DNA of 64,000 nt from Octopus vulgaris (lineage: Eukaryota): the NCBI GenBank assembly GCA_951406725.2, contig OX597819.1, forward strand, positions 48,608,001 to 48,672,000, in the 5' to 3' direction. Of the stretch, positions 21,743 through 57,634 are shown in pieces. Position 1 is the stretch's first letter; every line of letters begins with the position of its first letter. Below the pieces are notes generated by a model. It was not told where the DNA came from. It did not search any database and worked only from the letters and a program-made list of their open reading frames with translations. A program made the translations under genes and the position numbers.

Positions 21743-22046
21743 ATAAGTAATAAGGATGTACAGGTGTTAATACATTACAGCCATTTCAAGTGGCTCAATT
21801 TAATTGACAAATGAAAACATGACATCAGTTCAAAATAAACCGCTCTCTTCAGATGCTGATGACCATATAGATTTGAAACACAAAGGATAAACCATTTTTC
21901 AACCATGTTGTTTGAAATCTATATGGTCATCTGCTACTGAAGAGAGCGGTTTATTTCAAATTGGTGTAATGTTTTCATTGATCAACTAAAAGGGGCCACT
22001 TGAAATGGCTGTAATGTATTGACACATGTACATCCTTGTTACTTAT
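21743..22046. mobile_element. Foldback element with a hammerhead motif in each arm (inverted pseudo-LTR-like)
   Basis: About 135 bp imperfect inverted arms; CTGAAGA...GAAATGGCTGTA on - (21772-21856) and + (21933-22017). Confidence 0.7.
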
Positions 22047-22159
22047 TCACATTCCGTTCACCTTACTTGGGGCTGTGTGGACTATACTGAACTGGCAAGG
22101 TGCCTCAATTTAAGTACCTAATTTAATTGAATCTCAATTATATATATATATATATATAA

Positions 22160-22495
22160 TTTCAACAATTGAGGGTAAAATTAATTAATTAATCAATTTC
22201 ACCAAGTATTCAGTATACAAAGGGACCATTTAAGGCGAATTCAAATTATTACATTATATAAAAGGGCTTAGTAAAATAAATTACTTTGCCGCATACTGAA
22301 CTCATTAGAAATAGCAGCTAAAAAAAAAACTTTTTTAAAAACTATTTCCAATACTTAAAGAAAACCTCTCTCATATGAGAGAGGTTTTCTTTAAGTATTG
22401 GAAATAGTTTTTAAAAAGTTTTTTTTTTAGCTGCTATTTCTAATGAGTTCAGTATGCGGCAAAGTAATTTATTTTACTAAGCCCCTTTATATAAT
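22160..22495. repeat. Dispersed repeat ending in a 243 bp near-perfect palindrome (22253-22495)
   Basis: Arms mirror around ctcatatgag; linear relatives at 17700-17850, 29140-29440, 37878-38065. Confidence 0.85.
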
Positions 22496-23189
22496 ATATA
22501 TATATATATATAATACAAATAAGAAACTGGAGGAACAGATTCATTTCAATCATTGACTTACAGATATTACCAATTCATATTATTTATTAACTACATAAAT
22601 AGTGGAATACACTCATAACCCCTATCTCACTTTGTACTATATATATATATATACTGTATTGCTCGCACCCAATACATATAATATAGAAATGAAGGTTCTT
22701 AGTTCAAATCCAATTTAGTGTAATATACACATATTGATGGACAAACACCTGAGGATTGGAGATTAAACTGATTGAAGCATGAAGTACATGTACATAATCC
22801 TTCGTTTCTAAAGATGATAAAACAAATATTATCATTGTATTGAACTGTTTCAGATAACTGTTTATTGTTTTTTTTTTGTGCATCATAATTTATGTTGTGG
22901 TGAAATCTCATAATTATACATCCCATTGTATACCTTTCTTTGTGTAGAAATATGGATAGTTTGTTCAAAAAATTAATACAGTGCACACCACACTTGCACA
23001 CATACACATACATGCACACACACACATACATGCACATACACACTCATGCATGTGTACACATGCACATACATCCAATGGATTCTTTGAATTACCATCAACC
23101 TAATTCACTCATAAGGATTTGGTCAGCCTAGGGCTATAGTAGAAGACACTTGCTCAAAGCTCCACACAGTAGGACTGAACCTATCATCA

Positions 23190-23540
23190 TTTAATATCCA
23201 TTTTCTATGTTGGCATGGGTTGGAGAGTTTGACAGGAGCTGGTCAGGCCAAGAGATGCACCAGGTCCCATTGTCTGTTCTGGCATGGTTTTTATGGTTGG
23301 ATGTCTTTCCTAATGCCAGTCACTTTACAGAATGTACTGGGTGCTTTTTACGTGTCACTAGCACCAGTGCTTTTTATGTGACGCCATTACCTGCACTTTT
23401 GACGTTGACACCCTCACTAGTGCTTTTTATGTGGCACCAACAATGGTGCTTTTTATGTGTCACCACCACAAGTGCTTTTTATGTGACACCATCACCAATG
23501 CTTTTTATGTGGTACTATCACCTGTGTTTTTTATGTGATG
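23190..23540 (-). mobile_element. Old RTE tail with ~22 bp tandem units
   Basis: Reverse tail followed by repeated gtgctttttatgtg(a/g)cacc. Confidence 0.7.
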
Positions 23541-23561
23541 CATATCTTCATGTCTATTTCA

Positions 23562-53265: not shown

Positions 53266-53452
53266 ATATTGTTATATTTCGGAATGGTCATTTTGCCAGT
53301 TTAGCCAATAAAAATACACACACTATATATTTGGTGTTATTTTGCTTCAGTGTTATTTACTTTTTACATTAATCTTAATAACACCAAATATATAGTGCGT
53401 GTGTTTTTATTGGCTAAACTGGCAAAATGACCATTCTGAAATATAACAATAT
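53266..53452. repeat. Foldback with about 75 bp arms between (TA)n tracts
   Basis: ttgttatatttcggaatggtc..ggtgttatt / aataacacc..gaccattctgaaatataacaa. Confidence 0.9.
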
Positions 53453-56246
53453 CTGTTTCAACACATGACTTCACATAAAAAATCTTGCACAACAAATATA
53501 TATATATATATATATATATATATATATATAAACTAATGCATTACACATCTCTGTTGTGGATTGCTATGTGGTTCATTAGAGGAGCTTTTTTATAATACAA
53601 ATTTATATATGTATACATTTATATTCTTTCTACTATAGGCACAAGGCCTGAAATTTTGCTGGGAGGGAGCTAATTACTTACATTGACTGCAGTGCTCAAC
53701 CAGCACTTATTCTCTTGGTGGTGAGAGGATGAAAACCAAAGTCAACCTTGGTGGAATTTGAATTCAGAATGTAAAGAACTAGAAGAAATGGCACTATGCA
53801 TTTTGTCTGGTGTGCTAGTGATCCTGCCAGCTCACCACCTTCATGTATGTGTGTGTGTGTGTGTGTATATATATATATATATATATATATATATACACAC
53901 AAATACAGACACGTGTGTGTATGTGTGGTGTATGTGTATGTATATATGTGCATACATACACATGTAAACACACTCACACACACATACACATATATACATA
54001 TATATATATATGTATTTATATGTATATAGATATGTGTGTGTGTATAAGTGTGTGTATGTGCATGAAAGAGTGAGTATGTGTGTCTGTGTGCATATATGTA
54101 AATATTCAACCTCAGAAGCATTACAAAGGGTCTGCTGTCGCCAATATGAACTCATGACTCACTCAGCCATTTTGCTTCCACATTAACATAATAACTCATA
54201 ATTCCCCCATCCCACCCACCTACCCACTCCACACTGCTCCACCAGTCACTCAAGTCACTGAAGTCAACAGAGCTGATCATCTATTGATAGATATATTTGT
54301 CTGATCACAAAAAAATGTCAAGCAATTTACTCTCTTTATTCCTTTGGTGCATGGGATAAATATTTATCTTACCATGAAAACAATAGTAATGATCATAGAA
54401 ATAATAATAATAATAATAATAATAATAATAATAATAATGATGATGATAATAATTATTTTTCTTATTGGTTACTAGACCCTGAAACATTGAGGACAACAAA
54501 AGGGCAAAATACAAACACACAAAGTGGGGTTAAAACTGAGTGCAAAATACAGGTCAACATTAATTAATTAATTAATAATACAGGCTAGTCTGTAAATGAC
54601 TATCATTTCACACACAAACACACATGCACATACATACTCTCCACACACACATACACATACACATGTACACAGACACATACATACACATGCACACACATAC
54701 ATACACACACACACATATATATACACACATGCAAACACATACATACACACATAGTATTTAAAGCAATTTAAGGGTCACACATTATCATCAGCGTTGACGT
54801 CATCATCATCATCATTGTCATCACCATTTGATGTCTTTTTTCCATGCTGGCGTGGCTGGAATGTTCAACAGCAGCTTGTGAGACAGAGAAAAAGTATTAA
54901 GCTCCAATATTTGCTATGGCATGATTTCCATGATAGAATGCTTCCCTAACACCTATCATATACTTTATCCTGTCATCCCCGGGCATAAAGCCACCTCCCT
55001 CAATACTACTCCCCCTCTCAGTTGATGAGTGTCTTGTTCTGCGAGTTTCTTGGTGACCTCACTAATGCTGGCGTCACATAAAAAGTACCCAGTACATTCT
55101 CTAACATGGTTGGCATTAGAAAGGCATTAAGCCATAGAAACTATGCCAGAGCTGACATTGGAGTTCAATGAAGTCCTCTGCTTCATTGGTTTTTGTTGAA
55201 CTCTCTAACCCATGCCAGCATGGAAAAACAGATGTTAAACAAACAATGATGTTCATGGTATATATATATATATATATATATATATATATATATATATATA
55301 TATATATATATATATATATATATATATATATATATATATATATATATATATATATATATATATATTCTTTTACTTGTTTCAGTCATTTGGATGCAGCCTT
55401 GCTGGAGCAGCACCTGTAGTCAAACAAACCAACCCTAGAACTTATTCTTTGTAAGCCTAGTACTTATTCTATCAGTCCGTTTTTGCTGAACTGCTAAGTT
55501 ACGGGGACGTAAGCACACCAACATTGGTTGTCAAGCGATGGTGTGGGGACAAACACAGACACCCAAATACACACACACACACACACACACACACACACAC
55601 ATACACACACAGACGAGCTTCTTTCAGTTTCTATCTACCAAATCCTCTCACAAGGCCTTGGTTGGCCTGAGGCTATAGTAGAAGACACTTGCCCAAGGTG
55701 CTATGCAGTGGGACTAAACCCAGAACCATGTGGTTGGGAAGCAAGCTACTTACCACACAGCCACGCCTGCACCTATGTATATATATATATATATATATAT
55801 ATATATATATATATATATATATATATATATATATATATATATATATATATATATATATATATATATATATATATATATATATATATATATATATATATAT
55901 ATATATGTTTTCTATCTGTTGTTATTTATCTATCTAATATTGTATCTAATTTCTCCTCTATTAACTCTGCCAGACCAAGTCTCGCTCTATCATCTTTTTC
56001 AACCTCCGCGTATACGCGGTCCCCCACCACCAATACCGGATATCTCTATATTTTTGCTCCATCTATACCGGATGTTGTTTCTCCCACCACCATTATAGGT
56101 GTCTACTCTTGAACCCCCTCCTCAATACGCTATTTCACCATATTACCCTCTTGATATCCTACGTTCTACTTGCCTAAGAACCTGTCATCATTCTCTGAAC
56201 CACCCTCCCCACTGGTGCTCCCCATATTTCTGCCCCCCCCCCATAG

Positions 56247-56482
56247 AAAAAGCACCATCCGAACGTGGCCGATGCCAGACCCCTCTGGCACCTGTGCAGG
56301 TGGCACGTAAAAACACCCACTACACTCGCGGAGTGGTTGGCGTTAGGAAGGGCATCCAGCTGTAGAAACACTGCCAGACCAGACTGGAGCCTGGGGCAGT
56401 CCCTAGTTCCCCAGACCCCGGTCGAAACCGTCCAACCCGTGCTAGCGCGGAAAACGGACGTTAAACGATGATGATGATGATA
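56247..56482 (+). mobile_element. RTE 3' tail copy, young
   Basis: Units plus tail, (gat)n then (TA)n. Confidence 0.85.
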
Positions 56483-57131
56483 TGATATATATATATATAT
56501 ATATATATATATATATATATATATATATATATATATATATATACATGATATATATATATATATATATATATGGTATAGTATATATGTGTATATATATACA
56601 TATAATATATATATATATATATATATATATATATATTTAATAATATCAGGGTAATAAAGATTTTAGAAATTTTTACTACCAGTGGCCTAGCGTATAGAAA
56701 AATTAGTCAATAGACTATATATTATTCATACAATATACAGTGTACATTTAAATACATTAAGAGGTATCCATCTTAATGTGATACCTCTTACTGTGTTTAA
56801 ATGTATATATATTTTATATATATATATATATATATATATATATATATATATATATATATATATATATATATATATATATATATATATATATATATATATA
56901 TATATATATATATATATATATACATATATATATTTAAGTAGTTGAATGAATTATCCTAGTATGGATAATTCGGTTAACCAATACCCGGGTAGCAAATTCA
57001 CGTCAGAAAACATGGTTGAAACTACATGCCAAGGGCAGAGACCACGTGCTTTCATGTGGAAATTTGTGTTTTTTTTACTATAAATAAATGAGAGAATGGA
57101 GTTGAACGATGATTTAACAAAATTCCTTTAT

Positions 57132-57212
57132 TCTCGACATATGTTTCGAAGACTGCATATTCCTAAATCCGAAGGAATAAAGGGTGCATTATGCCGCCTT
57201 CTCATCAGGAAA
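57132..57212 (-). ncRNA. Type I hammerhead ribozyme, intact core
   Basis: tttc-CTGATGA-gaaggc...gtcttc-GAAAC-ATAT-GTC-gaga. Confidence 0.8.
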
Positions 57213-57634
57213 GACAAGGAACTTATGTCAGCATCATGACAAACAAAAACTTTTAGATGACTGCCCACACGGAGTCCATAGTGATAATGAGTGTTTCTTT
57301 AAAAAATATATATATATGAGATCTTGGTGAAACCTCATATATTTTATCCATATGTTGGTGTTCGGAAGGGCACCCAGCTGTAAAAACCGCAGAAATCCGG
57401 TGTAAGCTCCTGCCTGGCAGGCTCCTACACCAACCTGTGCTAGCATAGAAGACAGACATTAAACAATGATGATAATATATTATTCTTTTACAAGAATGTT
57501 GCTGACAGTGACTTCAAAGTTTTGGCTTTGTAAACCATTGTTAGACTGTGTAACCTTTGAAGTCACTGTCAACAATATTCTTGCATCAGAATAATAAATT
57601 TGTACCCTGCAAAAGTATAGAGCAACCCATGAGA

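Follow-up and report, generated by a model that had tools for sequence, protein, structure and literature searches.

Hairpins with one-sided tails in TA repeats of an Octopus vulgaris genomic segment as probable truncated Penelope-like element insertions

A stretch of 64,000 nucleotides from the Octopus vulgaris genome (assembly GCA_951406725.2, contig OX597819.1, positions 48,608,001 to 48,672,000; hereafter the window, with positions counted from its first nucleotide) contains a set of long DNA foldbacks that are embedded in (TA)n runs and carry unpaired sequence, a tail, on one side only. Several lines of evidence, namely hammerhead ribozyme motifs in two of the units, the start of an open reading frame (ORF) that runs into one of the tails, tails and end points common to family members, and the published anatomy of Penelope-like elements (PLEs), suggest that these foldbacks are heavily 5'-truncated PLE insertions in (TA)n, in which two copies of the 3' end of the element (the pseudo-long terminal repeat, pLTR) are joined head to head. 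We assign this reading a probability of roughly 0.8, and it supports the attribution to PLE integration made in a preliminary description of the same DNA. More than one PLE family is involved, several different families being represented in the window. The overall architecture has already been published and is of a known kind, not a new system.

All seven foldbacks of the preliminary description, denoted H1 to H7 in its order, are present where it had placed them, with the arms of H7 reaching further than described, and an eighth, with arms at 50117-50288, was absent from it (Table 1). At a threshold of at least 50 bits, 11 local foldbacks occur in the microsatellite-masked window, compared with a single one in 20 block-shuffled windows taken together. 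These 11 include a pair of copies of a short interspersed nuclear element (SINE; 45817-46090), a low-complexity segment (16830-16890) and an isolated 59-bp hairpin (8470-8528). The SINE pair and the low-complexity segment were left out of the analysis of the TA layout, which was defined as a TA run of at least 5 units no more than 20 nt from one end of the foldback and a second such run at a distance of 30-110 nt from the opposite end, with thresholds that were fixed only after the cases had been seen. This layout was found in six of the nine remaining foldbacks (H1, H2, H4, H5, H6 and 50117-50288) and not in the isolated hairpin, and random intervals show it at a frequency of 0.0025-0.0065 in this AT-rich, repeat-dense window with its 95 TA runs of at least 5 units. 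The gaps between arm and TA run (left/right, in nt) are 0/95 in H1, 96/0 in H2, 6/55 in H4, 0/47 in H5, 106/9 in H6 and 15/68 in 50117-50288, and the one-sided tails measure 47, 47, 55, 68, 95, 96 and 106 nt. The succession of TA run, hairpin, one-sided tail and TA run that had been proposed for all seven units holds for five of them (H1, H2, H4, H5 and H6), whereas H3 fits it loosely, 47 nt separating its left arm from a long TA run and its right arm ending on (TA)3 only, followed by a SINE, and H7 lacks bounding TA runs. The isolated hairpin (8451-8529; 28-bp, near-perfect, with an 18-bp tandem duplication) is far from long TA runs.

With respect to the identity of the arms, H4 combines a ribozyme motif with the start of an ORF. 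Its loop contains a minimal type-I hammerhead with a covaried G3-C8 core, and ~55 nt downstream of this motif a frame begins with an ATG at 38292 and stays open through the entire tail; counted from this ATG, the short arm ends after ~34 nt of the ORF and the tail after ~89 nt. The encoded peptide is identical in 27 of 30 positions (90%) to residues 1-30, the N-terminus, of Octopus sinensis LOC115227545 (P0030), in whose gene model the matched frame runs ~190 residues past residue 30 and is followed by a methyltransferase part recognized by Pfam; this model appears to be a fusion in which a repeat ORF contributes ~220 residues and the remainder is a fragment of an arginine-methyltransferase-like host gene. 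A scan of the window with a descriptor of the minimal type-I hammerhead in which positions 3 and 8 may form any Watson-Crick pair yielded four matches scoring at least 22 against a null mean of 0.15 (40 shuffles), one in H4, one in H1 and two in TA-bounded single ends. The H4 motif has the top score, 30, and 0 of 40 window shuffles reach 26; its monomer fold is the minimum free energy structure (z -3.2), and it has a G10.1-C11.1 pair and a palindromic helix III, neither of which is required by the descriptor, as well as an extra base after position 9, which the descriptor allows. In H1, the canonical hammerhead core is present in both arms and points outward, the second copy (~21937-22017, plus strand) being decayed; 0 of 100 shuffles were as good as the H1 hammerhead in a relaxed hammerhead scan, and the tail of H1 presumably belongs to the element.

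PLE-type sequences are present in the window outside the hairpins as well. The two TA-bounded ends with canonical hammerhead cores (56934-57305 and 60004-60647) and three further segments bounded by TA or TAA (60847-61277, 50395-50974 and 41729-41900) are probably single PLE 3' ends. The latter three display decayed hammerhead-like cores that fall below the descriptor. Furthermore, a C-terminal remnant of a PLE GIY-YIG endonuclease (41352-41564), which shares 61% identity with the C-terminal end of a 582-aa reverse transcriptase (RT) protein and, over 41352-41492, 85% with an O. vulgaris predicted protein, adjoins a TA run; thus, PLE remnants do occur beside TA runs here.

H2 is a near-perfect palindrome, with 1 substitution and 1 indel between its arms in 120 nt, and it belongs to a family whose end points can be compared. 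Alignment shows that the relatives at 29134-29437 and 2600-2732 contain the H2 tail up to the same end, followed by TA, and altogether the family comprises three copies at the long end and three at the short end. Thus, copies of the family terminate at two alternative 3' end points, each of which is represented by one arm of H2. The 3' ends point outward in H4, as indicated by the polarity of hammerhead and ORF, in H1, with its outward hammerheads, and in H2, on the evidence of the family ends, and they presumably do so in the other five of the eight units; the tail consists of element sequence in H2 and H4, as indicated by their relatives and by the H4 ORF. The foldbacks had been described as unrelated, which is correct in that no cross matches exist among the seven but overlooks the non-hairpin relatives that H2 and H4 each have in the window. 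All five of these relatives (four of H2 and one of H4) are without a hairpin, and this evidence, from one window, argues against an alternative in which hairpin and tail together form a fixed non-autonomous element that arose once from a PLE and was then copied whole. Such a scenario, which we consider improbable, finds a precedent in the curated entry Penelope-13_HM in the supplement of PMC8557442, whose consensus has an inverted 5' copy attached, and is compatible with the departures from a perfect helix III palindrome that are common to both arms of H1.

The asymmetry of the units bears on a different alternative, namely that they are TA-targeting miniature inverted-repeat transposable elements (MITEs) or other DNA transposons with long terminal inverted repeats (TIRs), in which case the tail would be unrelated flank. 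The TA target and the long inverted arms are compatible with this possibility, as are H3, both arms of which end on TATATA, and H7, which has no defined tail. However, in H2 and H4 the element continues past one arm into a tail made up of family sequence, and the hammerheads and the ORF start are at odds with a MITE. Moreover, the window's own Tc1/mariner MITE-like element (18256-19142), which we take to be mariner-like, has long inverted arms like the foldbacks but is symmetric, with 206-bp TIRs and a transposase remnant, and has neither a tail nor long TA runs. The asymmetry is indeed unlike that of MITE TIRs, as previously noted, and we regard a DNA transposon origin as quite unlikely.

Fold-back repair of breaks at TA cruciforms, which would have duplicated adjacent DNA and was the other origin initially envisaged, draws on the abundance of TA runs in the window and on the ability of TA repeats to extrude cruciforms. 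At the centres of all eight hairpins, the longest alternating TA is just 2-4 nt, and this origin is unsupported because the TA runs are located at the outer ends of the units, not at their centres; furthermore, the arms are ends of repeat families with common end points and hammerheads, not arbitrary flanks. We consider repair of this kind very unlikely. Fold-back artefacts of assembly or library could be suspected in the case of H2, a near-perfect palindrome without a loop, but the H2 tail is matched by independent copies and the other seven of the eight units differ by 3-14% between arms. The substitution divergence between arms is 13.3% in H1, 0.8% in H2, 4.4% in H3, 3.1% in H4, 4.2% in H5, 6.9% in H6 and 14.0% in H7, and in the younger foldbacks the differences are mostly transitions. 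Given this range of 0.8% to 14%, the foldbacks differ in age and, except for H2, cannot represent copying artefacts, an explanation to which we attach hardly any credence.

Several observations weigh against a PLE origin, for some units more than for others. A minimal type-I hammerhead motif was found in two of the eight units (H1 and H4) and was not found or not significant in the other six. The hammerhead descriptor was written after the H4 motif had been spotted by eye, and Rfam searches of H1 and H4 returned no hammerhead family; on the whole window, only miRNA-like chance matches were seen among the best 150 of 249. The H1 motif folds no better than shuffles. No hammerhead is supported in H2, where a match with a deviant core was rejected (3/100 shuffles), and the relaxed scan detected none in H5 and H7 and no significant one in H6. 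A match in H3 was discarded as a foldback artefact, its stem I being borrowed from the opposite arm. The 50117-50288 foldback contains a half-hammerhead only, which is not significant in the relaxed scan and in a half-hammerhead test that has little discriminating power (P 0.23-0.43); at 29134, the relaxed scan detected no hammerhead and the half-hammerhead motif is not significant alone (P about 0.3). No second copy in the window was found for H1, H3, H5, H6, H7 or 50117-50288, and the tail is thus demonstrably element sequence in two of the eight units. H7 has a 6-nt ATATAT at its left end only and no TA run within 861 nt to the right. At 47-106 nt, the tails are longer than the 30-40 given in the literature, which is a typical value rather than a strict definition, and no RT or endonuclease sequence is joined to any hairpin in the window.

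As for the protein encoded at the H4 end, we presume that the N-terminus of LOC115227545 resembles PLE N-termini, a resemblance confirmed by no tool. Pfam recognized only the methyltransferase part, and the N-terminal 222 residues were identified neither by Atlas (best 0.78, no family) nor by phmmer, motifs from the PMC8557442 supplement or genome searches, which covered phages, bacteria and archaea; there was no match among solved PLE structures, and the H4 peptide had 0 matches among 50% representatives. H3, H5, H6, H7 and 50117-50288 are assigned to PLEs by shape only. Taking the units separately, we regard a PLE origin as highly probable for H1, H2 and H4, as fairly probable for H3, H5, H6 and 50117-50288, and as evenly balanced for H7.

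With respect to how such units might arise, we propose that the PLE RT/GIY-YIG protein would nick both strands of a TA run and that reverse transcription of the element RNA would then be primed from each 3' end, beginning at either of two internal start sites that lie close together. The two cDNAs would stop after 30-200 nt and would be joined head to head by end repair; the one-sided tail would represent the stretch between the two start sites, the loop the extra 5' reach of one cDNA, and the flanking TA runs the split target, later expanded, with the copies now predicted to be decaying and non-coding. This two-primer route is, in our assessment, slightly favored by the evidence. In H4, the hammerhead-containing loop has the same orientation as the tailless arm, which implies that both arms were templated from element RNA, and the geometry of the unit points to two separately primed cDNAs.

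The units could, alternatively, be PLE-derived but self-primed, as the preliminary description suggested, with one cDNA (or an antisense template) snapping back at a small palindrome, serving as its own template, ending before the tail is reached and becoming attached to the TA run via a few TA-like bases. Model reasoning for H4 indicates that snap-back of a tailed cDNA would place the loop on the tailed arm and that snap-back of a tailless cDNA could not yield the tail; because the 82-nt loop is on the tailless arm, simple self-priming of one cDNA, that is, a single snap-back from a sense-templated cDNA, cannot build H4. Moreover, single copies of the H2 family stop at the short end without any hairpin. 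Self-priming could still account for H2, which has no loop, and for H3, which has small palindromes at its junction, and PMC3846280 proposes it for rotifer PLEs from such palindromes. The short-arm ends also overlap the TA run slightly more than expected by chance (P 0.006 in the 8 cases and 0.045 when H3 is omitted, the overlaps having been read by hand). As a general explanation, self-priming is a tentative possibility.

In the PLE anatomy published in PMC8557442, a 5'-truncated copy is attached in inverted orientation to the 5' end, one end or the other bears a tail of 30-40 bp, and the target is (TA)n; octopus families of the Naiad and Hydra types are listed there with such targets. The endonuclease-containing (EN+) PLEs with an inverted pLTR described in PMC8557442 and PMC3846280 share with the present units the inverted 5'-truncated copy, the tail at one end, the (TA)n context and, in H4, the ORF start in the pLTR and tail and, in H1 and H4, the hammerhead near the 3' end. 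They differ in that here both copies are cut to 30-200 nt, so that no ORF body is left, the tails measure 47-106 rather than 30-40, and several families occur in a single window. According to PMC3846280, the pLTR of a rotifer PLE holds 12 ORF residues, or 22 with the tail, compared with ~11 and 30 at the two ends of H4. For an anole PLE, PMC11167929 reports cleavage and extension of both strands in vitro, predicts dimerization and places the start of reverse transcription at two sites within the ORF, which delimit the tail. This element, Poseidon PAc of Anolis, parallels the present units in the two internal RT starts in the 5' part of the ORF that define the tail, in the cutting and extension of both strands and in the AT-rich target; in PAc, as described there, RT starts 111-118 nt into the ORF and the hammerhead overlaps the start codon, whereas in H4 the ends lie at ~34 and ~89 nt and the hammerhead ~55 nt upstream.

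In PMC4209133, pairs of minimal hammerheads located 100-700 bp from each other on opposite strands are regarded as truncated PLEs, and H1 has this layout. The metazoan PLE minimal hammerheads of that source resemble the H4 motif in being type I, with an extra base between positions 9 and 10.1, a G10.1-C11.1 pair and a palindromic helix III. In contrast, the core of H4 is G3-C8 where the natural covariant reported in PMC4209133 and PMC3088659 is U3-A8; in PMC11167929, C3G/G8C figures as an engineered partial rescue. The octopus elements Hydra-1_Obim and Naiad_Obim/Ovul/Omin among the supplementary sequences of PMC8557442 resemble the present units in host genus and (TA)n preference, but their 3' ends match none of the hairpins in a comparison made by eye only; three exact motif searches against the supplement sequences were blank, and Naiads lack canonical hammerheads. 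Non-LTR retrozymes, characterized in bioRxiv 10.64898/2026.07.22.740005 by head-to-tail tandem units, each with a hammerhead, were also considered and rejected, the units here being inverted, not tandem.

These particular families and tails of 47-106 nt were not found in the portions of the literature searched. Likewise, no natural G3-C8 hammerhead was found in the literature searched, which included passages of PMC3088659 and PMC3884650 and did not include a 2017 paper on PLE hammerhead variants. Provisionally, and from the sequence of one copy, H4, the natural G3-C8 core would be a novelty, and it would widen the rules of hammerhead searches. Thousands of such miniature insertions would form a natural dataset on how PLEs make inverted repeats and tails, and H4 already separates two-primer from snap-back models. 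Furthermore, annotation easily mistakes such units for MITEs or miRNA hairpins, and any transcripts of them would provide ready ADAR substrates in a heavily editing animal. PMC5625713 reports very high double-stranded RNA (dsRNA) potential and hyper-editing in octopus, without assignment to a repeat class, and a 2026 repeat annotation of O. vulgaris (PMC13282606) lists PLE families, with the words 'hairpin' and 'editing' absent from its main text. Literature searches revealed no paper that, by its title or the start of its abstract, linked PLE hairpins to octopus editing. We hypothesize such a link: two-site, two-strand priming by TA-targeting PLEs may have seeded octopus genomes with dense, self-contained hairpins of 60-300 bp (8 per 64 kb) that might be a main source of the dsRNA potential and A-to-I hyper-editing, with one family possibly carrying an active natural G3-C8 hammerhead that CUGANGA searches would miss. 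As a whole, this proposal is speculative and rather doubtful.

Table 1. Coordinates of the foldbacks, their relatives and other features in the window.
Feature	Position	Strand	Remarks
H1 short arm, putative inverted PLE 3' end	21746-21880	-	outer end adjoins TA run 21736-21745
H1 long arm (21909-22043) with 95-nt tail	21909-22138	+	reaches TA run 22139-22158, common to H1 and H2
H1 minimal type-I hammerhead	21772-21852	-	CUGAAGA core, long helix II, palindromic helix III; score 23
H2 long arm (22255-22374) with 96-nt tail (22159-22254)	22159-22374	-	tail and 3' end common to 29172-29433 and 2600-2732
H2 short arm	22375-22493	+	joined without loop; ends at TA run 22494-22512; end point as in 17684-17826 and 37876-38049
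H2 non-hairpin relative, long end	29134-29437	+	TA-bounded; start is a half-hammerhead-like motif
H2-family relative, short end	17684-17826	+	homology lost at H2 short-arm end point
H2-family relative, short end	37876-38049	-	cut at 37875 by another repeat
H2-family relative, long end, diverged	2600-2732	+	carries H2 tail
H3	33054-33388		47-nt putative tail; arms 33101-33221 and 33245-33388; small palindromes at centre
H4 tailless arm (38114-38178) with 82-nt loop continuing it	38114-38260	-	TA run 38071-38107
H4 long arm (38261-38325) with 55-nt tail	38261-38380	+	up to TA run 38381-38424
H4 minimal type-I hammerhead, covaried G3-C8 core	38197-38239	-	in loop; 7-bp stem I, G10.1-C11.1 pair, palindromic helix III
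Element ORF, first 30 codons	38292-38381	+	ATG at 38292; short arm stops near codon 11, tail at codon 30
Diverged non-hairpin relative of H4 arm and tail	11450-11543	-	65% identity, E 0.005
Eighth foldback	50102-50356		arms 50117-50288; 68-nt tail; TA runs 50068-50101 and 50357-50394
H5	53270-53495		arms 53270-53341 and 53377-53448; 35-nt loop; 47-nt tail; TA runs 53216-53269 and 53496-53530
H6	56637-56814		106-nt tail; short arms 56743-56805; TA runs 56605-56636 and 56815-56922
H7	57474-57600		older foldback beside SINE 3' end; tail undefined
Canonical-core hammerhead	57132-57208	-	in TA-bounded single PLE-type end 56934-57305
Canonical-core hammerhead	60358-60464	+	in TA-bounded single PLE-type end 60004-60647; 4/100 shuffles
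PLE GIY-YIG endonuclease C-terminal remnant	41352-41564	+	directly after TA run; one stop codon; outside any hairpin
DNA transposon remnant, presumably mariner-like	18256-19142		206-bp TIRs, decayed transposase frame
5'-truncated long interspersed nuclear element (LINE) with RT	51695-53215	-	Pfam RVT_1; split by one stop; ends at TA run bordering H5

Among the other elements of the window, the 5'-truncated LINE next to H5 is presumably of the RTE type. Two 398-bp copies (26676-27073 and 37479-37875), 94% identical to each other and located beside (TAA)n runs, are possibly LINE 3' ends that target TAA; one of the two copies cuts an H2-family copy. A short frame at 23872-24213 on the plus strand resembles, as we presume, the restriction-like endonuclease of R2/R4-type LINEs, and a long mixed trinucleotide array (CTG, CCA, CTA, TGA) at 39440-40070 yields open low-complexity frames.

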